Notes: a model not told the origin generated them from the sequence alone. DNA of 64,000 nucleotides from Candidatus Nomurabacteria bacterium (GCA_026396065.1 JAPLXO010000011.1:10748-74747), one strand, 5' to 3'; shown: positions 5,491 to 23,775, numbered from the stretch's first letter. Made by a program: numbers and translations.

Positions 5491-5665
5491 ATAAAAGTAT
5501 AGTTAATAGTATGGAGTCTAGGTGGGAGATTATGATGTGGCTTTCTGACAATAAGTTTGCTGAATCGTGTTTTGAGAAACCACCCTCTTTCAAGAAATTA
5601 TTGTGTATGCTTTATCGCTTTTCGTCACTGTTTAATTACAGTGACGATTTTTTATTTCTCAAAAC

Positions 5666-6741: not shown

Positions 6742-8637
6742 ATGTCAAAAATAATAGGAATAGATTTGGGTACTACAAATAGTGCGGTTGCGATTATCGA
6801 AGGAGGACAACCAAAAATAATAGAAAATATCGAAGGAGCGAGAACAACTCCGAGTATTGTTTCTGTTGCAAAAAACGGAGATCGTCTCGTCGGCCTTCTT
6901 GCGAAGCGTCAGGCGGTGACGAATCCAGAAAATACCGTCTACGGTATCAAGCGTTTTATGGGTCACAATTTTGAAGATCCAGAAGTGCAAAAGGACTTGA
7001 AGAATGCTTCATTTAAATTGCAAAAAGGAAAAGACGGCGGAGTAGAAGTAATGATTGGCGACAAATGGATGCGCCCAGAAGAAATCTCTGCGATGATTTT
7101 AACTAAAATAAAAACAGACGTCGAAGCAAAGATCGGAGAAAAAATCACTGAAGCTGTTATTACAGTTCCAGCATATTTCAACGATGCACAAAGAAAAGCT
7201 ACAAAGGATGCAGGTATGATCGCAGGACTCGATGTAAAAAGAATCATCAACGAGCCGACAGCGGCAGCCCTCGCTTATGGTTTCAATAAAAAGAAAAATG
7301 AAAAGATCGTCGTGTATGACTTTGGAGGAGGAACTTTCGATGTATCAGTTCTCGAAATCGGTGACGATGTTATCGAAGTAAAATCAACAGATGGCGACAG
7401 TCACCTCGGAGGTCGTGATATAGATCACAAGATTATTGCTTGGATCGCAGAAGAATATAAAAAGACTTCTGGCGTAGATGTTCGTAACGACAAATTGGCC
7501 TTGCAACGCCTCGATGAAGCTGCTGAAAAGGCTAAAATCGAGCTTTCTACTGCTATTGAAAGTGAAATCAACATTCCTTTCATCACTTCTACTGCAGAAG
7601 GTCCACAGCACTTATTGCTCAAAATGACTCGTGCACAACTCGAATCAATTGCCGATGAATATATCACTCGTTCTATCGAAATCACAAAAAGAGCAATGAC
7701 TGCTTCTGGTTTCAAAATGGAAGACATGAATGAAATCATAATGGTCGGAGGACAAACAAGAATGCCAAAGATTGTCGAAGAAGTGAAAAAAGTTTTTGGA
7801 AAAATGCCAAACCTCTCTATCAATCCAGATGAAGTCGTCGCCCTCGGTGCTGCAGTGCAAGCCGGAGTATTGCAAGGTGATGTGCGTGATGTTTTACTCC
7901 TCGATGTTATTCCACTTTCACTAGGTATCGAGACACTCGGAGGTGTGGCTACAAAATTAGTCGAGAGAAATACTACTATTCCATCTAGTAAATCACAGAC
8001 ATTTTCTACGGCAGCTGACAATCAAACAAGTGTAGAAATTCACATCGTGCAGGGTGAGAGACCAATGGCTTCAGATAATAAAAGTTTAGGACGATTTATT
8101 TTGGACGGAATTCCACCAGCACCGCGTGGTATGCCACAAGTCGAAGTTTCTTTTGATGTTGATGCAAACGGAATTCTAAATGTCACTGCAAAAGATAAAG
8201 CTTCAGGTAAAACTCAAACAATTAAAATCGAAGCAAGTTCAGGATTGAAAGATGAAGACATAAAGAAGATGCAAGCTGATGCAGAAATGCATGCTGAAGA
8301 AGATGCAAAGAAAAAAGAATTGGCAGAAATTAAAAATTCTTGTGAAATGACTATTTACTCTGCAGAAAAAGCTTTGAAGGACAATGAAGCGAAAATTCCT
8401 GCAGATGTAAAAGATGGTGTGAATGCAAAAATTACAGCACTTCGCGGGTTGAAAGACGGTACAGATATGGAAGCTATCAAAAAAGCCCTCGAAGAACTTT
8501 CAGCCGAAATGTCCAAGATCGGTGAAGCTATGAGTAAAGCCGGCGAGCAAGCTCCAGCCGGAGGTGCACCCGAAGAACAAGCTACCGAAGTCAAGGGCGA
8601 AGAAGTAAAGCCAGAAGGTGAAGAGCCTAAAGCATAA
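6742..8637 (+). CDS. dnaK: Molecular chaperone DnaK (Hsp70)
   Basis: 631 aa; [12 protein letters not shown]; DLGGGTFD; substrate-binding domain; acidic C-terminal tail. Confidence 0.97.
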
Positions 8638-8644
8638 AAACTAA

Positions 8645-8676
8645 CAAAAAAAAGCTCAAAAGAGCTTTTTTTTGTT
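8645..8676 (+). terminator. Rho-independent terminator after dnaK
   Basis: aaagctc-aaa-agagcttt plus T8. Confidence 0.7.
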
Positions 8677-8701
8677 TTTAGTAACTGATATAATAAAACC
8701 T

Positions 8702-10978
8702 ATGGAAGATATTGTAATACCTGAAAATAAAGACATGACCTATCTTGGTCAGACTACTTTTCGTAACAAAAATGTTTTATTTGGAATAAAACGCAAAGAT
8801 CGTCGTCAGCACTGTTATTTGCTCGGAAAATCAGGTACTGGTAAATCTGCTCTCATGACAAATATGGTTTTGCAAAACATCATTAATGGTGATGGTGTTT
8901 GTGTTGTCGATCCACACGGAGAACTTGTAGAAAGTATTGTATCAGCTATTCCAGCTCATCGTTTAAAAGATGTTATTTATTTTAATCCTGCTGACACTGA
9001 TTATCATATTGGTTTTAACGTTTTAGAGTTATTAGATCCTCGTTACAAACATCTTGTCGCCTCAGGATTGATGGGAATTTTCACAAAAATTTGGGCGAAT
9101 GCATGGAGTGCTAGAATGGAATACATTTTAAATAATTGTATTTTGGCTTTACTCGATACACCAGGTACTACACTTCTTGGAATTCCTAGAATGCTCGTCG
9201 ACAAAGATTATCGTCAGAAAATAATTACAAATTTGAAAGATCCAGTCATTAAAGCTTTTTGGATTCATGAATATGAAGCTTGGCAAGATAAATTTCGAAA
9301 TGAAGCTATTGCTCCGATTCAAAATAAAGTCGGACAATTTCTTTCTACTTCCATTATTCGTAATGTCGTAGGGCAATCAAAAAGTACAATTGATCTTTTT
9401 CAAGTAATGAATGAAGGAAAGATTTTTTTGGTGAATGTTTCCAAGGGACGTATCGGTGAAGATAACTCTGCACTTCTCGGAGGTATGCTTATTACAAAAA
9501 TTCAGCTCGCTGCAATGGAGCGTGTGCGTATTCCAGAAGAAGAACGTAAAGACTTTTACCTGTATGTCGACGAATTCCAAAATTTCGTAACAGATGCTTT
9601 TGCTAGTATTCTTTCAGAAGCTCGTAAATATCGTTTAAATCTTACTATAGCTCACCAGTACACAGCTCAGCTTGTCACTGCCAATGGTTCCGCTGTGCGT
9701 GATGCTGTATTCGGCAACGTAGGGACTATGATTATTTTCCGTGTAGGTGCTGACGATGCTGAATTCTTAGAAAAAGAATTTGAACCAGAATTCATGGCTA
9801 CAGATATTGTGAACTTGCCAAACTATCGAATTTATTTAAAATTGATGATTGATGGTATTACGAGTAGACCTTTTTCTGCTAAGACACTTGCACCGATGAA
9901 TAAAAACAGTAAGGTAAATACTGAGGAAGAAGTGATAAAGTCTTCAAGAACTCTGTATGGAAGATCGAAAGAAGTCGTTGAATCAGAAATAAATTCTTGG
10001 AGTGGAATGTCTTTGGGAGACATAGTACCTCCAGGTGGCAATGCTGGTGCAGATGTAGAAAAATTCCCTGTAATTTGTTCAAATTGTATGAAAGAAACTA
10101 CCGTGCCATTCAAGCCAGAAGAAGGACGCGCTGTATATTGTAAAGAGTGTATTGCTAAAATGAAGACAGGCGAGTTGAAGCCTACAAAAGGATCAGCACG
10201 TCAAATAAAATACGATGAAGAAACATTTTTCAAACCTCTTGCCGATCTAGGTATTGAATTTACTTCAAAAGAAGCTCCACCAAAAGTAATACCAAAGCCA
10301 TACATGCCACCAGTATCAAAACCAGGAATTTTTGGGACTGTTAAAAAAGTCTTTCAAAATACTGTTGGAGCAAAACCTCCATCTCCAATTTCAAATATAC
10401 CAAAACCAATTTCTCCAATTACTACTACTAATGTTAATGTTCCAGTTCCACCAAAACCTCCTATAAATATTTTTAAACCACCAACTCCTTCTCTTAATAT
10501 TCCAACACCGGTAATACCAACACCTACTCCACCAGTTAAACCTATTATTTCTACTACTCCAATTGAGTCACAAAAACCTCAAACTGTAGTTGAAAAACCA
10601 AAAGAAAATACAGCACTTAAAGATTTGTTAAATAAAGCCTTGGCACCAAAGCCAATTACACCAGTAGTACCACCTATACAGCCAGTTGTTCCAGAAATAA
10701 AAAAAGTTGAACCAGAACCAATTTCTTTAGCTTCTTTAAAAAATCCAACAATTGCAACTCCTATTTCACAAAATAAAGATAGATCTGCGAGTGCTGAAAA
10801 TATGAATAAGTTAAAAGAATTTGTAGCAAAAATTGCAGAACCTCTTAAAGCAGAAGAAATAAAAAAAGAGGAACAAATTCCTACACAACCTCCAGTCACA
10901 CCTGCACCTACTCCGACGATACAAAAAACAACAAAAGAAGTTCCAGAAGATGTATTAAGGAAAATTTTAGAAGAATAA
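8702..10978 (+). CDS. VirD4/TraG/TraD-like (FtsK-HerA superfamily) P-loop ATPase with C-terminal CxxC-CxxC zinc ribbon and ~250-aa Pro/Thr-rich low-complexity tail
   Basis: Walker A LLGKSGTGKS; Walker B FYLYVDEFQNF; EARKYRLNLTIAHQYTAQL resembles the TraG-D_C/VirD4 motif (...RGYGI.L.LI.Q...QL). Zinc ribbon CSNC...x...YCKEC. No N-terminal TM helices. The ORF track starts at a TTG (8672) inside the dnaK terminator, so the first ATG (8702) is preferred. Paralog of 20448-21920. Confidence 0.6.
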   Translation: MEDIVIPENKDMTYLGQTTFRNKNVLFGIKRKDRRQHCYLLGKSGTGKSALMTNMVLQNIINGDGVCVVDPHGELVESIVSAIPAHRLKDVIYFNPADTDYHIGFNVLELLDPRYKHLVASGLMGIFTKIWANAWSARMEYILNNCILALLDTPGTTLLGIPRMLVDKDYRQKIITNLKDPVIKAFWIHEYEAWQDKFRNEAIAPIQNKVGQFLSTSIIRNVVGQSKSTIDLFQVMNEGKIFLVNVSKGRIGEDNSALLGGMLITKIQLAAMERVRIPEEERKDFYLYVDEFQNFVTDAFASILSEARKYRLNLTIAHQYTAQLVTANGSAVRDAVFGNVGTMIIFRVGADDAEFLEKEFEPEFMATDIVNLPNYRIYLKLMIDGITSRPFSAKTLAPMNKNSKVNTEEEVIKSSRTLYGRSKEVVESEINSWSGMSLGDIVPPGGNAGADVEKFPVICSNCMKETTVPFKPEEGRAVYCKECIAKMKTGELKPTKGSARQIKYDEETFFKPLADLGIEFTSKEAPPKVIPKPYMPPVSKPGIFGTVKKVFQNTVGAKPPSPISNIPKPISPITTTNVNVPVPPKPPINIFKPPTPSLNIPTPVIPTPTPPVKPIISTTPIESQKPQTVVEKPKENTALKDLLNKALAPKPITPVVPPIQPVVPEIKKVEPEPISLASLKNPTIATPISQNKDRSASAENMNKLKEFVAKIAEPLKAEEIKKEEQIPTQPPVTPAPTPTIQKTTKEVPEDVLRKILEE

Positions 10979-11021
10979 TAAATTAAAGAATGTCGCGCTA
11001 AAAGGACTTACGCGACCTCAT

Positions 11022-11336
11022 TTGCAAAATCACATGTTTTGGAATAAAAATACAAATATACATACAGAAAGTACAGAAGAATTTTTTGACGACGAAAGTT
11101 TTAAAGAAATAAAGATGACCTTTATTGGTCGCGTGGTTACTATTATTATTGCTTCACTTTCATTGATCGCCGCACTTGCTTGGGAGGAAACACTTCACGA
11201 TTTATTCAGAGAATTTTTCACTAGTAGTGAATCAATACAAGGTAAACTACTTTATGCAATATTGGTGACTCTGCTTACTGTCATTGTTTCTGTTTTCGTC
11301 GGCCGAAGATTCCTTAAAAAAGCACGAAGGAAATAA
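11022..11336 (+). CDS. Small hypothetical membrane protein (two predicted TM helices)
   Basis: 104-aa ORF; hydrophobic stretches IGRVVTIIIASLSLIAALA and LLYAILVTLLTVIVSVFVG; between ATPase and paralog array. Confidence 0.4.
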   Translation: MQNHMFWNKNTNIHTESTEEFFDDESFKEIKMTFIGRVVTIIIASLSLIAALAWEETLHDLFREFFTSSESIQGKLLYAILVTLLTVIVSVFVGRRFLKKARRK

Positions 11337-11380
11337 ATACTTTTGCTGTATCAGTGTACTAGTACGATAGTATAAAAAAT

Positions 11381-13135
11381 ATGAATCCAGAAATTAAAAA
11401 TTGTCAGAACTGTAAAAAAGAATTTACGATAGAAACGGAAGATTTTTCTTTTTATAAAAAAATGAAAGTTCCACCACCGACATTTTGTCCAGAGTGTAGA
11501 ATGCAAAGAAGATTGGCTTGGAGAAATGAGCGTGGACTATATCGTAGAAATAGTGATGTTCCAGGGAAAGAAAACGAACAGATAATTTCTACTTATCCAC
11601 CTACTATAAATGTAAAAGTATACGACAATGATTATTGGTGGAGTGATAATTGGGAACCTACTGATTATGCTATGGAGTATGATTTTTCACGACCTTTTTT
11701 TGAACAATTTCGGGAACTTTTGTCTAAAGTGCCATTAATAAGTTTTGCTGATAGTAAAGGAGTAAATAATCAATATTGTAATTATATTACTGAAGGTAAG
11801 AATTGTTATATGCTTTCTGCTGCATGGAGTTGTGAAGATTGTTTACTTGGAAATAGAAATTCTTTTTGCAAGGAAACTGTTGATTCTTATGTGTGTCATA
11901 AAACGGAATTTTCTTATGGAAATATTTATTGTGGAGAATCATATAAATTATTTTATAGTGAACATTCGTACAATTGTACTGATTCATATTTTCTTTACGA
12001 CTGCCGAAACTGTATTGATTGTTTTATGTGTTATGGTTTGAGAAATAAATCTTACTGTATTGAAAATGTTCAATACACACAAGAAGAATATAGAGAAAAA
12101 ATGAAAGATATAAATTTGGGTAATTATGAAACTGTTGAAAATAATAAAACTTATTTTAATAAATTTAAACAAAATGCAGTTCGTAAGTACGCCAATAATA
12201 CAAAATGTATAAATGTGACGGGAGATAATGTCGAAAATGCAAAAGATGCACAATATTGTTTTGATTTACCAGGAGGAATTGAAAATATTAAATACTGTAA
12301 TTGGGGTACGTATGGATTAAAAGATTCTTATGATACAGGGCCGGGGACAGGTGGTAAATCAGAAATGACCTATGAAGGAGTTAGTATTGGTGTAGCAAAT
12401 GCTAATTGTTCTTTTGGTGCAATTGTTTGGAATTCTAGTAATGTACAATATGCTTTTAATTGTTACTCTACGAATAATTGTTTTGGTGTCGTCAGTTTGA
12501 AAAGTAAATCTTACTGTATTTTAAATAAGCAGTATACCAAAGAAGAATATAATGAATTGCTACCGAAAGTCATTCAACATATGAATGATATGCCTTATGT
12601 AGATAAAAAAGGACGTGTGTATAAATATGGGGAGCTTTTTCCAATAGAACTTTCTCCTTATGCATACAATGGTGCAACGGTACAAGATTTTTTCCCTCTA
12701 GATAAAGCCACTGCAGTAGGAGAGGGTTTTAATTGGCAAGATGAAACGGAGAGGAATTATGAGGTTACTTTACCAGCCTCAAGTATTCCTTTAAATATTG
12801 AAGAAGTTAAAAATGATATACTGTCGCAAACTTTAGGTTGCATAAACGCTTCAGGAGATGTACAGGGTTGCACGAAGGCATTTAGGTTAGTTTCAAAAGA
12901 ATTAGATTTTTATAAAAGATTTAATATTCCTATTCCACATTTTTGTCCAAATTGTAGACACGCGGAGCGTGTCAGTAGACGCAACCCTATGAAACTTTGG
13001 CACAGACAATGCATGTGTGATAAAACAAATCATGGTCATGCAGCTAAGTGTGAAGTTGAATTTGAGACTGCATATGCTCCAGATAGACCAGAGATCGTCT
13101 ATTGTGAAAAGTGTTACCAACAGGAGATTTATTAG
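11381..13135 (+). CDS. Cysteine-rich zinc-ribbon protein, paralog 1 of unrecognised family (584 aa)
   Basis: N-terminal CQNC...FY.K.KVPPPTFCPECR zinc ribbon; two internal copies of C..C.DCF.C..LRN..YCI.N.QY..EEY; C-terminal FY.R.N.P.P.FCP.CRH.ER...NP.KLW.RQC.C...RPEIVYCEKCYQQEIY. Confidence 0.7.
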   Translation: MNPEIKNCQNCKKEFTIETEDFSFYKKMKVPPPTFCPECRMQRRLAWRNERGLYRRNSDVPGKENEQIISTYPPTINVKVYDNDYWWSDNWEPTDYAMEYDFSRPFFEQFRELLSKVPLISFADSKGVNNQYCNYITEGKNCYMLSAAWSCEDCLLGNRNSFCKETVDSYVCHKTEFSYGNIYCGESYKLFYSEHSYNCTDSYFLYDCRNCIDCFMCYGLRNKSYCIENVQYTQEEYREKMKDINLGNYETVENNKTYFNKFKQNAVRKYANNTKCINVTGDNVENAKDAQYCFDLPGGIENIKYCNWGTYGLKDSYDTGPGTGGKSEMTYEGVSIGVANANCSFGAIVWNSSNVQYAFNCYSTNNCFGVVSLKSKSYCILNKQYTKEEYNELLPKVIQHMNDMPYVDKKGRVYKYGELFPIELSPYAYNGATVQDFFPLDKATAVGEGFNWQDETERNYEVTLPASSIPLNIEEVKNDILSQTLGCINASGDVQGCTKAFRLVSKELDFYKRFNIPIPHFCPNCRHAERVSRRNPMKLWHRQCMCDKTNHGHAAKCEVEFETAYAPDRPEIVYCEKCYQQEIY

Positions 13136-13137
13136 TT

Positions 13138-14886
13138 ATGGAATCAAAAACACCAAAATCAGACGTACTTATAGATGAAATCCTTGCAGGGCTTGTTCCA
13201 CATACACGTATATGTAAATGGAAAGGCGAGCATCAGCATTGTGAAGGCAAATTTGAAATTACGAATGAAGATATTTCGTTTCTTAAAATGCTTCGAGTTC
13301 CTGCTCCAAATTTCTGTCCTACTTGTAGAAGAATTAAAAGACAATCTTTTATGGGTTTCGCGCAACTTTTTAAGAGGAAATGTGATGTAGTTGGACACGA
13401 TGAATCTATCATCTCTGTTTTTTCTAAAGAATGCCCTTTCCCAGTTGTTGATTATAAGTATTTTGCTTCTGATGAATTTGATTCTTTTTTATATCGTAAA
13501 AATTATGAAGAGAATACAAGTCCAATGGAACAACTTTTTTCTCTAAGGAAAATTTTTCCAATGCCTTCATTTTTAAATCGTGATTCTTCGAGTATAAATA
13601 GTGATTATTCAAATGGAGGTAGAGATAATAAAAACTGTTATTACACTAGTGGTTGCTATACGGTAGAAAATGCTTGGTATTCAAATATGCTCGTGAAGAG
13701 CAAAGAAATAATGGATTGCCGAACTGTAAAACATTCAGATCATGTATATTCGAGTCTTTATTCAGACCATCTATATAAATCTTATTTTACTTATTTTTCC
13801 AATAGCTGTACAGATAGTATGTTTCTTTTTGATTGTAGAAATTGTATAAACTGTTTTGGTTGTGTAAATTTGCGTAATGCTAAATATTGTATTTGGAATG
13901 AACAATATAGTAAAGAAGATTATGAACAATTTATAAAATCAAATCTACCATTCTCTAGAGATTTTTTAGAAGAAAATAAGCAAAAATTTTGGCAACTTGT
14001 AAAATCACTTCCAATAAATGCTTCTAGAAATATGACTGTAAAAAACAATGTAAATGGTGTGATGAATGTGAATTCGAATAATTTATATGATGTCACAGAA
14101 TCTAGTAAAGCAGAAAATGTACGTCATGCAGATGGCGCTCTTACACATCAAAATTCTATGGATTTACTATACTCGGGCGGATCTAGTTTGCTTTACGGTA
14201 CTATAAATATCGGTTCTCAATCGAGCAACGTTCGATTTTCAGTTTCATGTAAATTTTCTACTAACTCAGAATTTATTTTTAATTCAAATAATCTAGATAA
14301 TTGTTTTATGTGTTTTGGTTTGCAGCATAAATCTTATTGTATTTTAAACAAACAATATAGCCCAGATGAATATTTTAAAATAATAGATGAAATAAAATCT
14401 GACATGATAAAAAGGGGAGAATACGACGACGGACTAAGTTTTGAATTTTCTGCCCAAGCATATAATTTTTCATTAGCCCAGATTTCTTTTCCTCTTACAG
14501 AACAAGAAATAATAAAATTAGGTGGTTATATGGCTGAAGAGCCAGAAAGTAATGCCGGAGATATGAAAATTTTATCAAAAGAAGAAGTGCCACAAACAAT
14601 AGATGAAGTATCAGATGACATTGTAGATTATGCAATTAAATGTGAGGTTACTGCTAGGCCTTTCAGGATTACTCCTTCAGAATTACAATTTTATAGAATA
14701 ATGAAATTACCACTTCCTACTATACATCCGATAGTCAGAATGAGAAAATATTATGAACTGGCACCAATCGGTAAAAGCTACCCTGCTGTTTGTTCTAAAT
14801 GTGGTAAATCATTTCGATCATTATTTGATCCTAAAGACGGTTATAAGCTATACTGTGAAGATTGTTATAAACAAGAAGTATATTAA
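13138..14886 (+). CDS. Cysteine-rich zinc-ribbon protein, paralog 2 (583 aa)
   Basis: Same architecture; starts 2 nt after the paralog 1 stop; ends ...YCEDCYKQEVY. Confidence 0.7.
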   Translation: MESKTPKSDVLIDEILAGLVPHTRICKWKGEHQHCEGKFEITNEDISFLKMLRVPAPNFCPTCRRIKRQSFMGFAQLFKRKCDVVGHDESIISVFSKECPFPVVDYKYFASDEFDSFLYRKNYEENTSPMEQLFSLRKIFPMPSFLNRDSSSINSDYSNGGRDNKNCYYTSGCYTVENAWYSNMLVKSKEIMDCRTVKHSDHVYSSLYSDHLYKSYFTYFSNSCTDSMFLFDCRNCINCFGCVNLRNAKYCIWNEQYSKEDYEQFIKSNLPFSRDFLEENKQKFWQLVKSLPINASRNMTVKNNVNGVMNVNSNNLYDVTESSKAENVRHADGALTHQNSMDLLYSGGSSLLYGTINIGSQSSNVRFSVSCKFSTNSEFIFNSNNLDNCFMCFGLQHKSYCILNKQYSPDEYFKIIDEIKSDMIKRGEYDDGLSFEFSAQAYNFSLAQISFPLTEQEIIKLGGYMAEEPESNAGDMKILSKEEVPQTIDEVSDDIVDYAIKCEVTARPFRITPSELQFYRIMKLPLPTIHPIVRMRKYYELAPIGKSYPAVCSKCGKSFRSLFDPKDGYKLYCEDCYKQEVY

Positions 14887-14888
14887 TT

Positions 14889-14951
14889 ATGGAAACAAAA
14901 AACTGTCAAAATTGTCCCGATTTTTTAAAAATCGAGGATCCACGATTCTAA
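14889..14951 (+). pseudogene. Truncated ancestral N-terminal leader of paralog 3 (METKNCQNCPDFLKIEDPRF*), interrupted by a ~100-nt palindromic insert
   Basis: 20-codon ORF begins like the other paralogs (METKNCQNC). It then runs into the inserted element and a stop. ATGA overlap with the restart codon at 14951. Confidence 0.5.
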
Positions 14952-16684
14952 TGAATTATAATCGGGATAAAAAAGATATGGAACATCAATCAGAAAGTAA
15001 AATATGTCAGAATTGTAAGACTTCGTTTATTATAAAAGAAGAAGATTTTAATTTTTATGAAAAAATCAAAGTTCCTCCACCGACATTTTGCCCGGAGTGT
15101 AGAAACATACAACGTTTTGCTACTAGAAATTCAAAATCTTTATATAAACGTGCTTGTGATGGCTGTAAAAAAGAAGTTATATCACGATTTTCACCGCATA
15201 ATCCAGCAGTTATGTATTGCCGAGATTGTTGGTGGAGTGATAATTGGGACGCACTTTCTTTTGCAAAAGATTACGATTTTTCTAAAACTTTTTTTGAACA
15301 ATTTAAAGAACTTCTTTTCTCTGTACCACATGTATCACTTTTAAATAATAATATGCATGAAAGTGATTACTCAAACATGGAATCAGATGATAAAAGATGC
15401 TATCTAACCTTTGGAGGACATTATAATGAAGATTGTGCTTTTACTGAATATAGTCTTTGGGGACGTGAAGTATATGATTCTTATTGGTCATTAAAATCGG
15501 AACAATGTCATGGATGTTCTCTTGTTGAGCGTTGCTATCGCACTTATGGATCTGAACAATGTTATGACTGTCTCGATACACTTTTTTCTTTTGATTGTAC
15601 AAATTGTTCAAATATTATTGGTTGTATAGGGTTGAGAAATAAATCATATTGTATTTTTAATCAACAGTATTCTAAAGAAGAATTTTTTGAAATTAAAGAA
15701 AATTTAAATATTGGTTCATATAGAGCTCGAAAAGAACTAGAAGAGAAATCAAAAACATTTTGGCTTAGTTTCCCACATAAAGAGAGTTTGATAACTCATT
15801 CAAATGATTGTACTGGAAATAGTATAGTTAATTCAAAAAACTCAAAAAACATTTGGCAGGCAGATAGTGTTGAGGATTCCAAATATAGTTATATCGCAGC
15901 TTGGAATAAAAACTGTTATGACGAAACATCGGCTGGTAATGACGAGCTTTGTTATCTGTGCGCAAATGGTGGTGGTTTATATAATTCTATCGCTATATTA
16001 TATTCTTTTGGTTCAAATGTAGATAAGAAAAAACAAAGTTTTAATTGTGGTTATTCTTATACTGTTCTCAACTGCACTGATTGTTTTGGTTGTGTAGGAA
16101 TTCGTAATAAACAATATTGTATTTTGAACAAACAATATACCAAAGAAGAGTATTTTGAACTTTTAGAAAAAATTAAAAAAAGTATGTTGGAAAATCCTTT
16201 CCAATCACAAAAGACAGGACAAGTATTTAGCTATGGGGATTTCTTTCCATCAGAGCATTCACTTTTTGCTTACAATGAGACAGTAGCACAAGATTTATAT
16301 CCAAAAGATAAAGATTCTGCAGAGGCTCAAGGTTTTGTTTGGCGAGAAGAACCTGAACCACACTACGACTTTAATCATTATCAAATTCCTGATGATATAA
16401 AAGACGTAGATGATTCTATTTTGTCTCAAGTGTTAAAATGTGAAGAAAGTGGTAAGGGTTATAAAATAGCTCGATCTGAGTTAGCATTTTATCAAAAAAT
16501 GCAGATTCCAATACCTCGTATTTCGCCACTTATACGTATTCGAGACCGTGTACGTGCATTGTTACCATTTAAACTTTTTGATAGGCAATGTCAGAAATGT
16601 AATAAGGATATAAAAACTCCTTATTCTCCAGAACGCCCAGAAATTATCTACTGTGAAAAGTGTTACCAGCAGGAAGTATATTAA
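14951..16684 (+). CDS. Cysteine-rich zinc-ribbon protein, paralog 3 (577 aa from restart Met)
   Basis: MNYNRDKKDMEHQSESKICQNCKTSFII...; same family architecture; ends RPEIIYCEKCYQQEVY. Confidence 0.65.
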   Translation: MNYNRDKKDMEHQSESKICQNCKTSFIIKEEDFNFYEKIKVPPPTFCPECRNIQRFATRNSKSLYKRACDGCKKEVISRFSPHNPAVMYCRDCWWSDNWDALSFAKDYDFSKTFFEQFKELLFSVPHVSLLNNNMHESDYSNMESDDKRCYLTFGGHYNEDCAFTEYSLWGREVYDSYWSLKSEQCHGCSLVERCYRTYGSEQCYDCLDTLFSFDCTNCSNIIGCIGLRNKSYCIFNQQYSKEEFFEIKENLNIGSYRARKELEEKSKTFWLSFPHKESLITHSNDCTGNSIVNSKNSKNIWQADSVEDSKYSYIAAWNKNCYDETSAGNDELCYLCANGGGLYNSIAILYSFGSNVDKKKQSFNCGYSYTVLNCTDCFGCVGIRNKQYCILNKQYTKEEYFELLEKIKKSMLENPFQSQKTGQVFSYGDFFPSEHSLFAYNETVAQDLYPKDKDSAEAQGFVWREEPEPHYDFNHYQIPDDIKDVDDSILSQVLKCEESGKGYKIARSELAFYQKMQIPIPRISPLIRIRDRVRALLPFKLFDRQCQKCNKDIKTPYSPERPEIIYCEKCYQQEVY

Positions 16685-16686
16685 TT

Positions 16687-18459
16687 ATGGAAACACGAAA
16701 TTGTCAAAATTGTAAAAAAGATTTCACTATAGAGGTGGAGGATTTTAATTTTTATCAAAAGATAAAAGTTCCACCACCGACGTGGTGCCCAGAGTGTCGA
16801 CTTATTCGTCGTCTTGCTTATCGTGAAGAACGGTCTTTTTATAAAGATGAATGTGATAAATGCGGTCATGAAATAGTAAGTTTATTTGCACCAGAATCTG
16901 ATCTTCCTGTCTTTTGTTCTCCTTGTTGGTGGAGTGATAGTTGGGATGCTACATCTTATGGAAAAGACTACGATTTTTCTCGTCCATTTTTTGAGCAATT
17001 ATATCAATTAATGAAAGTCGTACCAAATCAGGCTACAAATACACGAAATTGTACTGATTGTAAATATTCTCATGGCAATATACGTTGTAAAAATTGTACT
17101 TTTGTTTTTGCTGGTATACAGTCTATTAATTGCTATTATTGTTCAACACCGATTTTCACAAAAGATTCTTTTGATTCAAGCTTTATTATAAATGCTGATC
17201 ATGTATATGAAGGTGTACATATAGGGGGAATATATAATTCAAAATTTATTTATTTTTCTGATGAATGCTTGGACTGTTCTTTTATTTTTAATTGTGTTGG
17301 ATGTTCAGATTGTTTTGGTTGTGTAAATTTAAGAAATCAAAAATATTGTATTTTTAATATTCAATATTCTAAAGAAGAATATAAAAAAGAAATTTTAAAA
17401 TGGGATCTAGGTAGTTATGAAAATTTACAAAAAGCACGAGAACTTTTTATGAAACTTTACCATAAAACACCAAGACGTTTTGCATTAATTTCAAATTCTA
17501 CAAATTGTATTGGTGATGATATTCAAAATACTAAAAATTGTAAAATATGTTTTTCTGCTACTCATGGAGTAGAAAATTCTAAATTTATTTTTCAATGTGG
17601 ATTATTGTTGAAAGATAGTTATGATGTGACACTAGGCGGAGATACTTCTGAGCTTGCATATGAAGTAAATGGTAGCACTCAATCACAAAAAAGTTTTTTT
17701 TGTAGGGGTAGTAATAACTTAAGAGATGTTGAATATTCAGATAATATATACAATGGATCCAATCTTTTTGGTTGCGTAAAATTGAGACATAAAAAATATT
17801 GTATTTTAAATAAACAATATACAAAAGAAGAATATGAAGATTTAATACCAAAAATAAAACAGCATATGATAGATATGCCATATGTTGATAAAAAAGGACG
17901 AGTCTATAAATATGGGGAATTTTTTCCAGTAGAAATAGCTTTATTTGCTTACAATGAAACCTGGGCACATCAATATTTTCCTATTACAAAAGAAAAAGCA
18001 ATAGAACAAGGTTACAATTGGCGTGATCCGATAGAAAGGGATTATAAAATAACTATTAACATTGGGAATTTGCATAATCATATTAAAGATGTGACTGATT
18101 CTATTTTAGATGAAGTGATAGAATGTGAACATAATGGAAAAAACTGTAATCAACAGTGCACTACTGCTTTTAGAATTTTACCAAATGAATTGGGTTTTTA
18201 TAGACAAATGAATTTGGCTTTGCCTAGAATATGCCCAAACTGTCGTCATTATGAAAGATTAAAAAAAACAAATCCACCAAAATTATGGCATGGAAAATGT
18301 ATGTGCGATGGTGTAGAATCAAGTAATAAAGAATATAGAAATACTATTAAGCATTTGCATGGAGAGGAGCCTTGCCAAAATGAATTTGAAACTTCTATAA
18401 GTAGTGAAAGAAAAGAAATAGTTTATTGTGAAAAATGTTATCAGGATGAATTTATATGA
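16687..18459 (+). CDS. Cysteine-rich zinc-ribbon protein, paralog 4 (590 aa)
   Basis: METRNCQNCKKDFTIEVEDFNFYQKIKVPPPTWCPECR...; ends KEIVYCEKCYQDEFI; first ATG is 16687 (the ORF-track start 16660 is an alternative codon). Confidence 0.7.
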   Translation: METRNCQNCKKDFTIEVEDFNFYQKIKVPPPTWCPECRLIRRLAYREERSFYKDECDKCGHEIVSLFAPESDLPVFCSPCWWSDSWDATSYGKDYDFSRPFFEQLYQLMKVVPNQATNTRNCTDCKYSHGNIRCKNCTFVFAGIQSINCYYCSTPIFTKDSFDSSFIINADHVYEGVHIGGIYNSKFIYFSDECLDCSFIFNCVGCSDCFGCVNLRNQKYCIFNIQYSKEEYKKEILKWDLGSYENLQKARELFMKLYHKTPRRFALISNSTNCIGDDIQNTKNCKICFSATHGVENSKFIFQCGLLLKDSYDVTLGGDTSELAYEVNGSTQSQKSFFCRGSNNLRDVEYSDNIYNGSNLFGCVKLRHKKYCILNKQYTKEEYEDLIPKIKQHMIDMPYVDKKGRVYKYGEFFPVEIALFAYNETWAHQYFPITKEKAIEQGYNWRDPIERDYKITINIGNLHNHIKDVTDSILDEVIECEHNGKNCNQQCTTAFRILPNELGFYRQMNLALPRICPNCRHYERLKKTNPPKLWHGKCMCDGVESSNKEYRNTIKHLHGEEPCQNEFETSISSERKEIVYCEKCYQDEFI

Positions 18460-18572
18460 ATAAAAAAACAAAATTAAAAATAGAATCTTTAAAATATTTA
18501 ATTCCAATCTTGTTAAAAACAATTAAATTTCGAATTAAAGTTTGGCGACGTAAAAACTTTTAAATAAGATAT

Positions 18573-20315
18573 ATGGAAACACGAAACTGTCAAAATTGTA
18601 AAAAAGATTTCACTATAGAGGTGGAGGATTTTAATTTTTATCAAAAGATAAAAGTTCCAGCGCCGACTTTTTGCCCAGATTGTAGAACAATACGTAGACT
18701 ATGTTGGAGAAATGAAATGTCTCTTTTTAAGAGAAAATGTGATGCTCCTGGACATGAAGAAATGCTCATTACATGTTTTCCTCCAGAAGAAAAACTCACT
18801 GTATATGATTCTACATCTTGGTGGGGTGATTCTTGGGATGCAATACAATATGGAAAAGAATATGATTTTTCCAAATCATTCTTTGAACAGTGGAGAGATT
18901 TAAGAAATAGTATTCCACTTCAGGCACTTTCAAACATAAAAGCGACTAACAGTGATTATTGTAATGTGGCAGAGGGCAGTAAAGATAGCTATATGTGTTC
19001 GGGTACTTGGAAAATAGAAAGAACTCTTTACTCTAATAGAGTTTCAGAAACAAAAGATTCCTCCGACTTGTATATAGTGTATCGTTCTGAGCTTTGTTAT
19101 GAAGATGTAATATGTTCTGATTGTTACCATTTAATGTACTCTTTAGATTGTAAAAGTTGTGTTGACTCATTTTTTCTCTATGATTGTGTGGGTTGCACAG
19201 ACTGTTTTGGTTGTAGTAATTTACGCAATAAATCATATTGCATGTGGAACGAGCAATTGTCTAGAGAAGAATATTTTCGTCATTTAGCAGAATATAATTT
19301 AAAAAATCATGAGACTATATCGATTTTAAAAAATAAATTTAAAGAAATTTGTTTGCAATCTTTACATCGTTTTTCACTTCAAATAAAATCAGTAAATTCT
19401 ACTGGTGACAATTTAGAAGGTACAAAAAATTGCAAAGTGTGTTTTGATGTTTCTGGAAAAATGGAAGATTTGAAATATGTGCATTGGACAGCTATTAGTG
19501 CAAAAGACGCTTATGATTCTGGCCCTGGTATTGGACAAGTTGAACTTGCATATGAATCCTTTGACACTGGAATAGGTAATTTCCGTAGTCTTTTTACGAG
19601 TGTTGTATATAGTTGTAACGATGTTGAATATTCATTTAATTGTCATGGTTCTTCGAATTTATTTGGTTGTATTGGAATTAGAAATAAAAAATACTGTATT
19701 TTAAATAAAGAATATACAAAAGGGGAATATGAAATATTATTGCCAAAAATTAAAGAGCAAATGATGCAAGTTCCATATATAGATAAAAAAGGAATTAATT
19801 ATAGATACGGTGAATTTTTTCCAGCAGAACTTTCTACTTTTTGTTATAACGAAACACAAGCACAAGATTATTTTCCAATAGATAAGGAATATGCATCTAA
19901 AATGGGATATCGTTGGCGTGATAAAAAGATAAGTGAATATCACATCACTATTGAATCAAAAGATCTTCCAGATTCTCTTGATGACGTTACAGATTCAATC
20001 ACTAATGAAATTATTGGATGTGAAAATAAAGATAAGATGAGTAATTATTGTAGAGGAGCATATAAAATAACTATCGATGAGCTGAATTTATATCGCAAGC
20101 TTGGAGTACCATTACCAAGACTTTGTTTTCTTTGTCGGCATGAAACTAGATTAAAAATGCGTAATCCAATGAAGCTTTGGAATAGACAGTGTATGTGTGA
20201 AAAAGAAAATCATCAACATAGTGGTAAATGTGAAATTACATTTGAAACATCATACGATCCTAATAGACCAGAAATAGTATATTGTGAAAAATGCTATCAA
20301 GCCGAGGTTTATTAG
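18573..20315 (+). CDS. Cysteine-rich zinc-ribbon protein, paralog 5 (580 aa)
   Basis: METRNCQNCKKDFTIEVEDFNFYQKIKVPAPTFCPDCR...; C-terminus NPMKLWNRQCMCEKENHQHSGKCEITFETSYDPNRPEIVYCEKCYQAEVY nearly identical to paralog 1. Confidence 0.7.
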   Translation: METRNCQNCKKDFTIEVEDFNFYQKIKVPAPTFCPDCRTIRRLCWRNEMSLFKRKCDAPGHEEMLITCFPPEEKLTVYDSTSWWGDSWDAIQYGKEYDFSKSFFEQWRDLRNSIPLQALSNIKATNSDYCNVAEGSKDSYMCSGTWKIERTLYSNRVSETKDSSDLYIVYRSELCYEDVICSDCYHLMYSLDCKSCVDSFFLYDCVGCTDCFGCSNLRNKSYCMWNEQLSREEYFRHLAEYNLKNHETISILKNKFKEICLQSLHRFSLQIKSVNSTGDNLEGTKNCKVCFDVSGKMEDLKYVHWTAISAKDAYDSGPGIGQVELAYESFDTGIGNFRSLFTSVVYSCNDVEYSFNCHGSSNLFGCIGIRNKKYCILNKEYTKGEYEILLPKIKEQMMQVPYIDKKGINYRYGEFFPAELSTFCYNETQAQDYFPIDKEYASKMGYRWRDKKISEYHITIESKDLPDSLDDVTDSITNEIIGCENKDKMSNYCRGAYKITIDELNLYRKLGVPLPRLCFLCRHETRLKMRNPMKLWNRQCMCEKENHQHSGKCEITFETSYDPNRPEIVYCEKCYQAEVY

Positions 20316-20447: not shown

Positions 20448-21920
20448 ATGGGAAAGCCGAATCGAGTTCAGATAATCAAATATGGTCCACCACCACCAGA
20501 GCTTCCGGTGTTTGGAAAGGTGCCTCCTGAAGAGGTTTCTTTTATTGGACGTACGAATTACGTCGCAGCACTTGAAGAAAAGAAATTTATTTTCGGAATT
20601 AAGCGCGTTGACCGCCGAAGACATTTATATATCATTGGAAAGTCTGGGGTTGGAAAAACAAAGCTTCTAGAATTGATGCTTCGCCAAGATGTGACATATG
20701 GCCACGGTCTTTGTCTTATCGATCCACACGGTGACGTTATCGATGCAATGCTCGATTATATTCCAAAAGAGCGTGTTGAAGACGTTTGTATTATTGACCC
20801 TGCTGATATTGATTTCCCAGCATCTTTCAATCCTTTGGCAAATGTCGACCCAATGTTCAAATTTCAATTGACTCAAGGGTTAATCGAAGTTTTCCAAAAA
20901 CAATTCGGTGCAAACTGGACACCACGTCTCGAGCACGTTTTTCGTTTTACTTGTCTCGCATTACTCGATTATCCGTATGCTACGATGCGCGGAATGATCT
21001 CGATGTTGACAGATAGAAATTATCGTCAGAAAGTCGTGGAATATATTACAGACGACATGGTGAAAAGATTCTTCGCTATCGAATTCGCGGACTGGTCTGA
21101 AAAATTCGATACTGACGCTATTATTCCACTTGTTAATAAACTAGGTCAATTTCTTTCTGATCCCTTGCTTCGTAATATTTTCGGACAGAAGCAAAATAAA
21201 ATAGATATTAGTAAATTGATGAATGAACAAAAAATAATTTTTATTAATTTGTCTAAAGGGCGCCTCGGTGAAGAAAATTCGTCTTTCCTTGGTTCGATGT
21301 TTTTGACTAAAATTAAACAGGCCGGAATGGAGCGCGCTAGTATTGCCGAACGTGACCGTAAAGATTTTTATATTTATGTGGACGAGTTCCAAAACGTAGT
21401 GACACAAACTTTCGAAAACATTTTGTCGGAAGCTCGAAAATACGGTTTGAACCTTACTATGGCTCATCAGTATGTCGGTCAAATTATTCCAAAAGTTCAC
21501 CAAGCTGTACTTGGTAATACAGGTAGTGTCATTTGTTTTCGTGTAGGTGGAGAAGATGCTGTAAAATTGAAACCCGAATTTGAGCCATTATTCGGAGTGA
21601 AAGACATGATCAACCTCGCCGTAGCAGAATTTTATATCAAAATGACGATTGATGGAGAGTCTTACGATCCATTTTCTGCAGAGACACTTCGTGTATTACC
21701 TCCAAATCATCCTTCATATCGACAAGAAATTATAAATGCATCACGTAGAAAATATTCAATTCCAAAAGACGATGCGCAAAAATTGATTCAAGAGGAAGAA
21801 GCTACAATTATTCGAAGTGCAGAAGAAAAAGCTATTATTTCAGGAAAAGGCAAAAATGAAGTTGACGAAAATGAAAAGTCTGCAAAACCAGTCGCTAAAG
21901 AAGCTGAACCTATGATATAA
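20448..21920 (+). CDS. VirD4/TraG/TraD-like (FtsK-HerA superfamily) P-loop ATPase, paralog 2 (490 aa; no zinc ribbon or Pro-rich tail)
   Basis: Walker A IIGKSGVGKT; Walker B FYIYVDEFQNV; EARKYGLNLTMAHQYVGQI; collinear with 8702-10978 over ~450 aa. Confidence 0.6.
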   Translation: MGKPNRVQIIKYGPPPPELPVFGKVPPEEVSFIGRTNYVAALEEKKFIFGIKRVDRRRHLYIIGKSGVGKTKLLELMLRQDVTYGHGLCLIDPHGDVIDAMLDYIPKERVEDVCIIDPADIDFPASFNPLANVDPMFKFQLTQGLIEVFQKQFGANWTPRLEHVFRFTCLALLDYPYATMRGMISMLTDRNYRQKVVEYITDDMVKRFFAIEFADWSEKFDTDAIIPLVNKLGQFLSDPLLRNIFGQKQNKIDISKLMNEQKIIFINLSKGRLGEENSSFLGSMFLTKIKQAGMERASIAERDRKDFYIYVDEFQNVVTQTFENILSEARKYGLNLTMAHQYVGQIIPKVHQAVLGNTGSVICFRVGGEDAVKLKPEFEPLFGVKDMINLAVAEFYIKMTIDGESYDPFSAETLRVLPPNHPSYRQEIINASRRKYSIPKDDAQKLIQEEEATIIRSAEEKAIISGKGKNEVDENEKSAKPVAKEAEPMI

Positions 21921-21967: not shown

Positions 21968-22012
21968 ATGAATTCTGAAACAAAAAATTGCCAAAATTGT
22001 CCCGATTTTTAA
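21968..22012 (+). pseudogene. Truncated ancestral N-terminal leader of paralog 6 (MNSETKNCQNCPDF*), interrupted by the same insert as paralog 3
   Basis: Read directly; the same CQNC then cccgattttt... junction as at 14910. Confidence 0.5.
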
Positions 22013-22035
22013 AAAATCGAGGATCCACGATTCTA

Positions 22036-23775
22036 ATGAATTATAATCGGGATAAAAAAGATATGGAACATCAATCAGAAAGTAAAATATGTCAGAATTG
22101 TAAGACTTCGTTTATTATAGAACAAGAAGATTTTAATTTTTATGAAAAGATGAAAGTTCCTGCACCGACATGGTGTCCTGAATGTCGAATGGCACGTAGA
22201 TTCCTATTTATGAATACTTGGAATCTATATAGGCGAAATTGTGAAAAATGTGGGGAAAGTACACTTTCAATGTTTTCAGAAGATAAACCACATAAGGTTT
22301 TTTGTTTACCTTGTTGGTGGTCGGATGATTGGGATGGTACTGAGTATGCTATCAATTACGACCCCTCTCGTTCTTTTTTAGAACAGATGAAAGAGCTGGA
22401 ACTCAGAACACCTTGGATGGCTAATACTATGATGTATACAATGAATGTAAATAGCCCGTATTGTAATGCTACTGGTCCAGTAAAGAATTGCTACATGCTT
22501 TTTTGGGCAGATTATTGTGAAAATTCTTTTTACTCATCTTATTTGAATACTTTAAAAGATTCTATAGATTGTTATCGGGTAGCTCATAGTGAATTGTGCT
22601 ATGAAGGCACTGGTTTGAATAAATGTTACAGAACTTTCTTTTCGGAAGAGTGTGATTCTTGTACCGATACGTGGTTTTCAAGAGCTTGTTCTGGTTTAGT
22701 AAATTGTTTTGGTTGTATAAATTTAAGAAATAAAAATTATTGTATATTCAATGAACAATATTCTCAGGAAGATTATTTTAAAAAAGTAAAAGAATTTGAT
22801 CTAATATCTCATACGTCATTAGAAAAAATAAAAAAAGATGTTTTAGTGTTTTGGAGTAAATATCCAAGGCGATTTTATAACGGTAATGCGTTAAACAAAA
22901 ACGTTAGTGGTGATTATATTTATGAATCTAAAAATGCACAGAATTGTTTTATGGTTTCTGGGGCTGAAGATTGTAAATTTACTCAATTTGTAAGTATTCC
23001 AAAAGCCAAAGATTGTTATGATAATACTGGTTGGGGAGATGGTTCAGAAAGAATTTATGAGTCTACTGTTGTCGGCCTCGGAGCAAGTAATGTAAAATTT
23101 TCTAATGAATGCTGGCCTAATGCAATGAATACAGAATACTCTATCTATGCTATAGGTGGATGTAAGGATATTTTTGGATGTGTCAATTTAAAGAAAAAAC
23201 AATATTGTATTTTAAATAAACAGTATTCAAAGGAAGAATATGAAAAGTTAAAAGAAAAAATTATTAAAGATATGAATATAAATACTTTTATAGACTCAAA
23301 AAATAGAGTTTATAAATATGGTGATTCATTACCTATTGAATTGTCGCCATTTTCTTACAATGAATCAAATGCTGGTAAGTTTTTACCAATTACAAAAGAA
23401 AAAGCTTTAGAGCAAGGTTTCACTTGGTCAGAAGGAAAGGTGAATGAATATAAGATTACAGCCAAGGCGTCTGATTTACCAGATACAATCTCATATACTA
23501 CAGATGAGATACTAAACGACGTGTTTGAATGTGCTTCTTGTCAAAGAGCTTATAAATTTACTCTAGGTGAATTGAATTTAATGAGAAGACTTTCTTTACC
23601 ATTACCACATAAATGTTTTCATTGTCGTCAAGAATTTCGTTTTTCTAGATCTAATCAGGCTAGATTATACGATAGAAATTACATGAAATGCGGAGTAGAT
23701 TTAAAAACTTCTTATAATCCAGATAACACAGAAATAGTTTATTGTGAAAAATGCTATCAGCAGGAAGTATATTAG
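22036..23775 (+). CDS. Cysteine-rich zinc-ribbon protein, paralog 6 (579 aa from restart Met)
   Basis: MNYNRDKKDMEHQSESKICQNCKTSFII...; ends NTEIVYCEKCYQQEVY; the first 28 residues are encoded by nucleotides identical to paralog 3. Confidence 0.65.
   Translation: MNYNRDKKDMEHQSESKICQNCKTSFIIEQEDFNFYEKMKVPAPTWCPECRMARRFLFMNTWNLYRRNCEKCGESTLSMFSEDKPHKVFCLPCWWSDDWDGTEYAINYDPSRSFLEQMKELELRTPWMANTMMYTMNVNSPYCNATGPVKNCYMLFWADYCENSFYSSYLNTLKDSIDCYRVAHSELCYEGTGLNKCYRTFFSEECDSCTDTWFSRACSGLVNCFGCINLRNKNYCIFNEQYSQEDYFKKVKEFDLISHTSLEKIKKDVLVFWSKYPRRFYNGNALNKNVSGDYIYESKNAQNCFMVSGAEDCKFTQFVSIPKAKDCYDNTGWGDGSERIYESTVVGLGASNVKFSNECWPNAMNTEYSIYAIGGCKDIFGCVNLKKKQYCILNKQYSKEEYEKLKEKIIKDMNINTFIDSKNRVYKYGDSLPIELSPFSYNESNAGKFLPITKEKALEQGFTWSEGKVNEYKITAKASDLPDTISYTTDEILNDVFECASCQRAYKFTLGELNLMRRLSLPLPHKCFHCRQEFRFSRSNQARLYDRNYMKCGVDLKTSYNPDNTEIVYCEKCYQQEVY

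Follow-up and report, generated by a model that had tools for sequence, protein, structure and literature searches.

Zinc-finger-ended double-solenoid proteins of Patescibacteria and their link to VirD4/TraG-like ATPases

What are seven large cysteine-rich proteins of a single design for, when they are encoded within 64,000 nucleotides (nt) of one very small genome? The stretch in question, hereafter the window, is JAPLXO010000011.1:10748-74747 of assembly GCA_026396065.1 (Candidatus Nomurabacteria bacterium), in which five of these genes stand between positions 11,381 and 20,315. Patescibacteria, or Candidate Phyla Radiation (CPR), to which this organism belongs, account for much of bacterial diversity. 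They live on other cells, their genomes measure ~1 Mb, and the majority of the proteins specific to their lineages lack an explanation. A first reading made from the sequence alone (the sequence-only reading) took the products for intracellular multi-zinc or Fe–S proteins, and a link to VirD4-type ATPases was suspected. The analysis presented here points to a Patescibacteria-restricted family of fixed length, ~550–610 amino acids (aa), which lacks a recognisable export signal, is predicted to hold two β-solenoids between zinc-finger ends, and was probably inherited together with one clade of VirD4/TraG-like ATPases.

Two solenoids between zinc-finger ends

The window holds the following family genes, where Zn1 to Zn4 stand for the four candidate zinc sites from N- to C-terminus.

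11381–13135, + strand: family copy 1 (P0001), 584 aa; Zn1, Zn3 and Zn4 intact, Zn2 degenerate
13138–14886, + strand: family copy 2 (P0002), 582 aa; the most divergent of the window copies
14951–16684, + strand: family copy 3 (P0003), 577 aa; Zn1, Zn2 and Zn4 intact
16687–18459, + strand: family copy 4 (P0004), 590 aa; all four zinc sites intact
18573–20315, + strand: family copy 5 (P0005), 580 aa
22036–23775, + strand: family copy 6 (P0006), 579 aa
55934–57691, + strand: family copy 7 (P0007), 585 aa; within a cell-wall gene cluster

All seven reading frames are open where they had first been placed, with products of 577–590 aa, and the start codons chosen at that time suit the family alignment better than those of the longest reading frames, putting the motif CQNC a few residues past the initiator Met. 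The copies align with copy 1 from end to end at 31–46% identity. A search of 1.84 billion representative sequences with a seven-copy profile returned 5,174 proteins at E ≤ 1e-3 (2,226 at E ≤ 1e-30), nearly all of them 550–610 aa long and covered from residue 1 to the end. The full-length alignment and the profile evidence thus bear out the single architecture claimed for the seven frames, and these end-to-end matches, together with profile–profile comparisons whose controls were clean (see below), rule out the alternative that the shared motifs are an artefact of low-complexity Cys/Asn-rich sequence. At 50% identity the family falls into 5,000 or more clusters, and a word-indexed search found at least 7,908 at 90% identity. 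Two longer forms of 1,727 and 1,114 aa suggest, by their length, tandem copies of the family protein.

Some particulars of the first description did not survive counting. The proteins contain 24–38 cysteines rather than roughly 40, the genome carries 16 copies rather than seven, and the C-termini of copies 1 and 5, which had been called near-identical, are 73% identical in their final 49 aa, compared with 45% along the whole protein, being more conserved and no more than that. The absence of signal peptides and transmembrane segments was upheld in the window copies (highest 19-residue Kyte–Doolittle mean 1.3; predicted isoelectric points (pI) 5.6–6.4), so that the proteins look as if they were made in the cytoplasm. 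No full-length match to a characterised protein was obtained from Pfam, NCBIfam, a profile search of the PDB, Foldseek or the ESM Atlas. In the ESM Atlas the matches were the family's own clusters alone, annotated as 'hypothetical' or 'putative zinc-binding' and belonging to Minisyncoccota; the NCBIfam scan matched only the CxxC-x17-CxxC domain; and the PDB search with the family profile gave just LIM-like matches to the last finger (E 0.2–0.4). A search of the accessible literature found no paper describing the family or its Pfam finger models.

An AlphaFold2 model of copy 1 from a 148-sequence alignment (pLDDT 94.1, pTM 0.93) gives the domain order, from N- to C-terminus, as a double zinc-finger unit, a helix, solenoid M1, a helical hairpin, solenoid M2, a linker and a second double zinc-finger unit. 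The parts lie in copy 1 as follows.

11402–11497, + strand: Zn1, of zf_Tbcl type (CQNC...CPxCR; C8, C11, C36, C39; matched by PF13451)
11741–12076, + strand: solenoid M1, aa 121–232, 8–9 coils of 12 residues
12167–12532, + strand: solenoid M2, aa 263–384, homologous to M1 and less regular
12590–12820, + strand: linker, aa 404–480, YGEFFP..SPFAYNET.AQ.YFP
12839–13114, + strand: C-terminal double zinc-finger unit, Zn3 and Zn4

Slices of the same 148-sequence alignment were compared by hhalign, which matched module 1 to module 2 (99.95% probability, E 3e-38) and the N-terminal to the C-terminal unit (99.7%, E 9e-26), whereas the control pairs stayed low (N unit with module 1 and C unit with module 2, <1%; linker with module 1, 2%). 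The proposed layout of homologous ends around a duplicated module therefore holds. The module had been sized at ~200 aa, however, and its period is ~150 aa, with a solenoid of ~100–110 aa. The duplication is also visible in the DNA, where the solenoid cap motifs, two per gene, appear as 12 copies spaced by ~455 nt inside the genes. The linker contains many of the family's near-invariant residues. A separate model of aa 385–584 reached pLDDT 95.3; Foldseek found nothing with it, and the only VIA-align matches, at Z ≤ 2.2, fell on the last finger, leaving the linker without a fold match.

The zinc-binding character ascribed to the ends is supported, since treble-clef models match them (PF13451 and PF23477/TIGR04272) and their cysteine tetrads are kept or lost as units. 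Zn3 of copy 1 (C487, C497, C522, C525) echoes Zn1, and Zn4 (C544, C557, C575, C578) closes the protein with ...PEIVYCEKCYQ.E.Y; Zn2 (positions 58, 61, 82, 85) and Zn4 are of the zf_Tbcl_2, or CxxC-x17-CxxC, type. Among 327 homologs, the four Zn1 cysteines are all present in 297 and Zn4 is intact in ~95%, while Zn3 (244, or 75%) and Zn2 (93, or 29%) are all-or-none, with phi coefficients of 0.8–0.97 and 0.98–1.00, respectively. Because of this behaviour as units (phi 0.8–1.0), the tetrads are read as metal sites, which fits their being ligand sets, and each protein is predicted to carry two to four intact Cys4 sites, putatively for zinc. The second N-terminal finger (CxxC...CxxC, with WWSD) does exist as described, although it is intact in just three of the seven window copies; in copy 2, only Zn4 is intact, with Zn1 down to three of its four cysteines and both Zn2 and Zn3 degenerate.

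Scores against the finger models lie around their cut-offs. For PF23477/TIGR04272 (27 bits), the C-terminus of copy 2 scored 28.1 bits, and a six-frame scan of the genome with zf_Tbcl_2 found a finger in ATPase1, an ATPase of the same locus, at 54.1 bits, four family fingers at or above the cut-off and 11 family matches below it. For PF13451 (24 bits), hmmscan of the seven proteins gave 15–20 bits and the six-frame scan 25.3 and 24.6 bits in two copies and 16–22 bits in nine others. Within this genome, zf_Tbcl_2 is limited to ATPase1 and family members, and zf_Tbcl to family members. The end units thus resemble these models in showing CxxC...CPxCR followed by CxxC-x17-CxxC, a finger shared with ATPase1; they differ in that the models are ~40 aa each and uncharacterised, whereas the family's fingers are paired, doubled at both ends and often degenerate. 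About 450 of ~580 aa, i.e., the solenoids and linker, lie outside any Pfam model. The only memberships that the sequences can support are these two uncharacterised treble-clef fingers. The last 45 aa superpose weakly (Z ~2) on PHD, ZZ and E7-CR3 fingers. The invariant tail had been proposed as a recognition signal. However, in the model it forms the second CxxC knuckle and the helix of the last zinc finger (pLDDT > 90), and it is accordingly predicted to be a folded part of Zn4 rather than a free C-terminal signal; its conservation can be accounted for by structure alone.

The solenoid cysteines behave differently from those of the ends. The 12-residue repeat has the consensus C-Y-x-C/S-x-x-C/V-x-x-S/C-K/E-D/N, its frequent cysteine columns all fall on one three-residue lattice, and in the model the inward positions form four ladders occupied mostly by Cys, Ser and small residues. 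The central motif CxxCxxC(F/I)(G/M)C..LRN..YCI.N.QY (CFGC in M1 of copy 1), which had been considered as a possible ferredoxin-like or other discrete metal site, turns out to form each solenoid's final coil with its cap, and all four cysteines of its CxxCxxCxxC are present in only 216 of 327 sequences (66%). Ferredoxin-like 4Fe–4S proteins are defined by an invariant CxxCxxCxxxCP motif; here the CxxCxxCxxC lacks the distal CP, lies inside a solenoid coil and commonly has Ser or Leu in place of Cys, and a cluster of this kind was rejected. Across homologs the solenoid cysteines are individually swapped for Ser, Val, Leu or Asn, and no covariation of pairs or tetrads was found among them (phi ≤ 0.5), whereas the zinc tetrads, which doubled as the positive control for the method, gave 0.8–1.0 in the same alignment. 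Being unpaired and replaceable, they are not read as Fe–S, zinc or disulfide sites, but as small residues that pack the interior of a protein whose folding takes place in a reducing environment.

A disulfide ladder was considered as well. Proteins of the TmAFP type have 12-residue Cys coils, strict i/i+6 Cys pairs and a secretory signal; the family has the 12-residue coils, but i/i+6 pairing (phi −0.45 to +0.24, implying no ladder) and the signal peptide are absent. The best fold match is phi29 gp12 (Z 8.6, root-mean-square deviation (rmsd) 2.5 Å, 98 aa), followed by the ryegrass ice-binding protein LpIBP (Z 7.3, 2.8 Å over 97 of 114 aa), the budworm antifreeze protein CfAFP (Z 6.2) and further generic solenoids, YadA heads and CsgA; a wide VIA-align search gave nothing above Z 8.6 and no bactofilin among the 41 matches listed. 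Values of Z below ~8 are a level that unrelated repeat folds reach. The family shares with these narrow solenoids the fold class and, with TmAFP, 12-residue coils and inward Cys. However, identity is 2–8%, signal peptides are lacking and the i/i+6 cysteines are not co-conserved, so the modelled likeness is one of shape alone, with no membership claimed. Foldseek with the whole model placed left-handed β-helix enzymes on top (GlmU, LpxD and γ-carbonic anhydrase, E 2e-5 to 1e-2). Hexapeptide-repeat β-helices have triangular coils of 18 residues, and the acyltransferases among them were rejected on a coil of 12 rather than 18, TM-scores of 0.05–0.10, rmsd of 13–24 Å and the absence of any Pfam hexapeptide match at E ≤ 1. 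Two 12-residue-coil solenoids with an unpaired Cys ladder, clamped by degenerate zinc fingers, make an unusual fold for proteins without an export signal.

The conservation of the parts is uneven. Against its three closest relatives, read as orthologs, copy 1 is 89, 81 and 72% identical in M1, 84, 75 and 74% in M2 and 77, 67 and 62% over the whole protein. Against paralogs the solenoids are lowest (M1 42 and 36%, M2 36 and 26%), and Zn1 and Zn4 are highest (62–74%). This pattern is suggestive of solenoid surfaces that are kept among orthologs and differ among paralogs.

An ATPase clade that accompanies the family

The host assembly (800,373 bp in 11 contigs, 97% complete) has 16 intact copies at six loci, amounting to ~28 kb or 3.5% of its DNA, and the same arithmetic gives ~5% in one related genome. 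For an uncharacterised family of thousands of clusters, this is a sizeable genomic investment. Named relatives are all Patescibacteria (Paceibacterota, Staskawiczbacteria, Liptonbacteria, Minisyncoccia), none of them characterised. Of 301 genomes sampled evenly across the phylum, 16 have the family, spread over at least 11 GTDB families, with 2–27 copies per positive genome; four other genomes hold 20, 16, 15 and 27 matches, one with a ~27-kb tandem array (G244:C8, 4.7–32 kb). Counts from draft genomes are lower bounds, as family-rich assemblies often break at family genes (G119, G048, G020:C17). Some copies in other genomes carry in-frame stops and are pseudogenes. Within the genus, copy numbers are 16, 1 and 0 (none detected), and the only ortholog pair is 49% identical, against 80% for DnaK, 82–85% for the ATPases and 65% for GrpE. 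In a tree of 56 members, copies from the host and from distant genomes are intermingled, in seven or more clades; paralogy is therefore old, with local duplications added.

Two ATPase genes flank the array of family genes in the window.

8672–10978, + strand: ATPase1, 768 aa, a soluble VirD4/TraG-like P-loop ATPase of the general Patescibacterial clade
20448–21920, + strand: ATPase2, 490 aa, a soluble VirD4/TraG-like P-loop ATPase

The Walker A (GKSGVGKT) and Walker B (VDEF) motifs of ATPase2 are intact, as are the Walker motifs of ATPase1, which also has its zf_Tbcl_2 zinc finger at aa 464–498 and a Pro-rich tail. A third paralog is found elsewhere in the genome, and all three lie within ~1.4 kb of a family gene. 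Such an ATPase adjoins or lies near the family array in the fetched loci of six further genomes (G244, G031, G165, G199, G027, G073) and, by coordinates, near family genes in three more (G142, G287, G082); at locus L032 the order is family–map–ATPase, as on host contig 6.

The ATPase superfamily occurs in 299 of the 301 sampled genomes, against 16 for the family (ATPase and VirB4 tallies include one unpublished genome, G154, on which no specific claim depends). In a tree of 54 ATPases, all 14 sequences from family-positive genomes group with this genus's ATPase2 in a single clade, supported at 100% by SH-aLRT (Shimodaira–Hasegawa-like approximate likelihood ratio test). One family-less congener, G284, is represented in it, whereas the 27 best-scoring ATPases of family-negative genomes all fall outside. 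Every family-positive genome carries a member of this clade, mostly beside an array. ATPase2 is nested in this family-linked clade, whereas ATPase1 groups with the organism's own class, a placement that fits co-transfer or co-retention of ATPase2 with the family. The suspected link to VirD4-type ATPases is thus substantiated by adjacency in at least 10 genomes and by a clade tied to family-positive genomes. Since this clade tracks the genomes that have the family, the two were probably inherited, and likely transferred, together.

Most family-associated ATPases have a conserved soluble N-terminal domain of ~280 aa, which had no match in the Pfam scan (L004 2385–4631, L009, L011, L017, L021 and, in the host genome, G000:C6:40747–43521, equivalent to L029 10748–13522). 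The 917-aa ATPase of L032 carries this domain as well, and a precomputed annotation tags it PF26449 (DUF8128). Both window ATPases have lost it and start directly at the P-loop domain. An N-terminal hydrophobic helix was seen in one different paralog only, G027a.

A 2025 survey of Patescibacteria found 5,713 VirD4 homologs in 2,918 genomes, only 148 of them near virB4, and its authors could not rule out that VirD4 homologs had been exapted for other functions (PMC12102498). The host's three ATPases are of the same kind as the type IV coupling protein (T4CP) homologs of that study, near-universal and far from virB4; the difference is that no partner family was reported there, whereas here one clade is tied to a zinc-finger/solenoid family. 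The link thus offers a first candidate client for the near-universal VirD4-like motors that PMC12102498 left open.

Possible roles of the pair

Our tentative proposal, which we hold at somewhat less than an even chance, is that the family and the ATPase clade form a two-component module, in which the ends and linker are a handle and the solenoids are specific to each paralog. The zinc-finger ends and linker would serve as a common handle by which a hexameric ATPase engages every family member, and the solenoid surfaces would, paralog by paralog, bind different targets. The ATPase clade could then act as a dedicated coupling protein that hands family proteins to the Patescibacterial type IV secretion system (T4SS), and the proteins would be delivered to the host cell's cytoplasm, a reducing environment that keeps zinc fingers and free thiols stable.

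VirD4-type proteins are substrate receptors, and expanded, fast-evolving, signal-less families are typical of proteins injected by reduced symbionts. On the grounds that the ATPases are of this receptor type, that a VirB4-like protein is encoded (NF045971, 367 bits, above the cut-off, at G000:C4:81641–83266), that the family is expanded and signal-less, and that its fold suits a reducing cytoplasm, the T4SS route is favoured. Even so, the full claim that the proteins are T4SS cargo or effectors, whose zinc-finger ends the ATPase clade reads to send up to ~27 paralogs into the host, is doubtful, and a purely intracellular partnership (remodelling, or action on DNA) ranks just below it as nearly as likely. 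If the cargo reading were true, the Patescibacterial T4SS would have its first cargo or effector family, one that would account both for the orphan T4CP homologs and for host manipulation by some epibionts.

A parallel can be drawn with the X-Tfe effectors of Xanthomonas, which come from a bacterium that attacks other bacteria and carry a conserved XVIPCD domain recognised by VirD4. The likeness lies in the many paralogs, the conserved folded terminal domain, the variable parts and the tie to a VirD4-type ATPase. However, there is no relation of sequence or fold, the family's ATPase is unanchored, immunity genes are not adjacent and the variable part is non-enzymatic.

A number of observations weigh against secretion, and some against the module itself. 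Of the marks of a T4SS substrate, linkage to a VirD4-type ATPase and a channel gene (VirB4-like) were found, but a membrane-anchored coupling protein was not: the N-terminal transmembrane helices of canonical coupling proteins are absent from these ATPases. VirB4 occurs in 287 of the 301 phylum genomes, so that its presence does not discriminate, and the family-linked ATPases are not near virB4. Compact zinc-stabilised proteins would need unfolding for passage through a T4SS, the models show no disordered C-terminal signal, and no conserved immunity-like small open reading frames (ORFs) were found between family genes. Many family genes are distant from ATPases and sit among housekeeping genes, in operons where they follow fusA, fall within the dcw cluster or separate adk from map, while the congener G284, in which no family member was detected, has retained ATPase2 (90% identity). 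The ortholog-versus-paralog contrast of the solenoids, clear in the group of copy 1, is weak in three other ortholog pairs.

The alternative that fares best keeps both partners inside the cell. The fingers would bind DNA or RNA and the solenoids serve as rigid spacers or DNA mimics, working with an FtsK/HerA-type translocase and without export, in the processing of incoming DNA (uptake for nucleotides) or in anti-phage or anti-plasmid defence. The ATPases do belong to the DNA-pumping FtsK–HerA/TraD superfamily, with weak matches to CedD, which translocates DNA, and to models of the defence proteins HerA, DndH and mad8. The patchy spread of the family (16, 1 and 0 copies within a genus, pseudogenes, 49% identity where DnaK has 80%) also speaks for this account, and it can draw on the mildly acidic character of the proteins (pI 5.6–6.4), on TrmB-type helix-turn-helix (HTH) regulators among the arrays of four genomes and on one source that labels a member 'Zn ribbon nucleic-acid-binding protein'. 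However, PADLOC gives the family no hit, no nuclease or effector domain and no informative fusions were found, 15–27 paralogs in a tiny genome are unlike known defence systems, and DNA binding by zf_Tbcl-type fingers is itself putative. We regard this account as unlikely, and rank it below the two-component module.

The cysteines lend themselves to an account in terms of metal or thiols, in which multiple Zn or Fe–S sites, those of the central modules included, or thiol buffering would be the primary function. It is suggested by the 24–38 cysteines per protein, by the two to four well-supported Cys4 sites at the ends, by a CxxCxxCxxC that is complete in 66% of members and by a thioredoxin-like gene and dsbB after the family pair in one related locus. 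Those in the solenoids, however, are replaceable by Ser, Val, Leu or Asn, lie on four inward ladders and lack the covariation of the end tetrads, and the account leaves a dedicated ATPase and paralog-specific solenoid surfaces unexplained, which makes it improbable.

Least probable of all, at very low odds, is a bactofilin-like structural or cytoskeletal role, with polymerising β-helix proteins that position the cell-wall or division machinery, for although the core is a β-solenoid, copy 7 stands in an mraY–ftsW–murG cluster (these genes on one side, a D-Ala-D-Ala carboxypeptidase gene on the other), another genome has a homolog flanked by murG and gltX, and mreB, PBP2 and RseP genes are near other copies, the family diverges fast, is confined to ~5% of sampled genomes with 0–16 copies within a genus, and has mostly ordinary housekeeping neighbours, as a compact genome predicts.

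The two-component module remains the reading that we favour. Its novelty lies in the protein family and the ATPase-coupled arrangement; the parts (zinc fingers, solenoid, VirD4-like motor) are of known kinds, and we infer the function. Family and ATPase clade give a concrete, testable protein pair for finding out which molecules are moved by the Patescibacterial T4SS or by some exapted portion of it.

The chaperone operon and other surroundings

The array interrupts a chaperone operon, and copies within it show traces of exchange.

4770–5378, + strand: grpE, upstream part of the chaperone operon
6742–8637, + strand: dnaK, upstream part of the chaperone operon
23856–24509, + strand: dnaJ, 217 aa, downstream end of the interrupted operon
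14892–15104 against 21977–22189, + strand: near-identical tract, 213 nt, 93% identical

The operon grpE–dnaK–ATPase1–ATPase2–dnaJ holds both ATPases and the family array, and a family-less congener has the same order without the six family genes; the two VirD4-like ATPase genes stand inside the operon across the genus, even in family-less genomes. In G284 an extra 328-aa ORF without Pfam match lies between dnaK and ATPase1. The four CxxCxGxG zinc-finger repeats are missing from the host dnaJ product, as is part of its C-terminal domain, whereas in the same genus the repeats and C-terminal domain are present in G256 (360 aa) and the repeats in G284 (289 aa), both genomes with few or no family copies. 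Linkage to dnaK was rejected as a family-wide trait: it holds within ~7 kb in three lineages, judged to be close to what chance would give when a genome of 1 Mb has many copies of a gene. Methionine aminopeptidase was likewise dismissed as a meaningful neighbour, being accounted for by insertion into a secY–adk–map operon.

In copies 3 and 6, the 213-nt tract takes in 59 nt ahead of the gene and its first 154 nt, the remaining gene being ~60–65% alike, and indicates recent gene conversion of their promoter-proximal ends, as judged from the alignment; copies 4 and 5 have a weaker tract (79% over 187 nt). Family genes of the array are separated by gaps of 2–133 bp, and the longest gap of the array, 403 bp of non-coding DNA between ATPase1 and copy 1 (10979–11380), contains no Rfam match and no notable ORF. 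Rfam returned nothing for the window, and a promoter scan found sites no more numerous than in shuffled sequence. Between dnaK and ATPase1, at 8643–8676, a perfect hairpin with a 15-bp stem and A/T flanks looks like a bidirectional intrinsic terminator or an attenuator. The window stretch was matched in two DNA runs of one freshwater metagenome study, with no RNA run among the matches.

In four genomes, TrmB-type HTH proteins of ~255 aa flank or interrupt family arrays (L030 (G000:C4) 4779–5567 and 8160–8942, on both sides of the contig-4 copy; L004 15634–16398; L005; L006) and could be regulators of the family. The thioredoxin-like gene (133 aa) and dsbB mentioned above directly follow a family gene pair at L033 7802–8747 (also L034), and in another relative (L002 20703–21248) DsbB and VKOR lie within 10 kb of family genes; these neighbours could be coincidental, or could point to thiol oxidation, which would go against reading the solenoid ladders as reduced. 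Further along the window, at 28363–34614, a 2,083-aa protein with SpvB, TcdB-middle, FG-GAP and RHS-repeat domains has the domain content of a polymorphic-toxin-like shell protein of Tc/Rhs type, encoded here within a genome of 800 kb.

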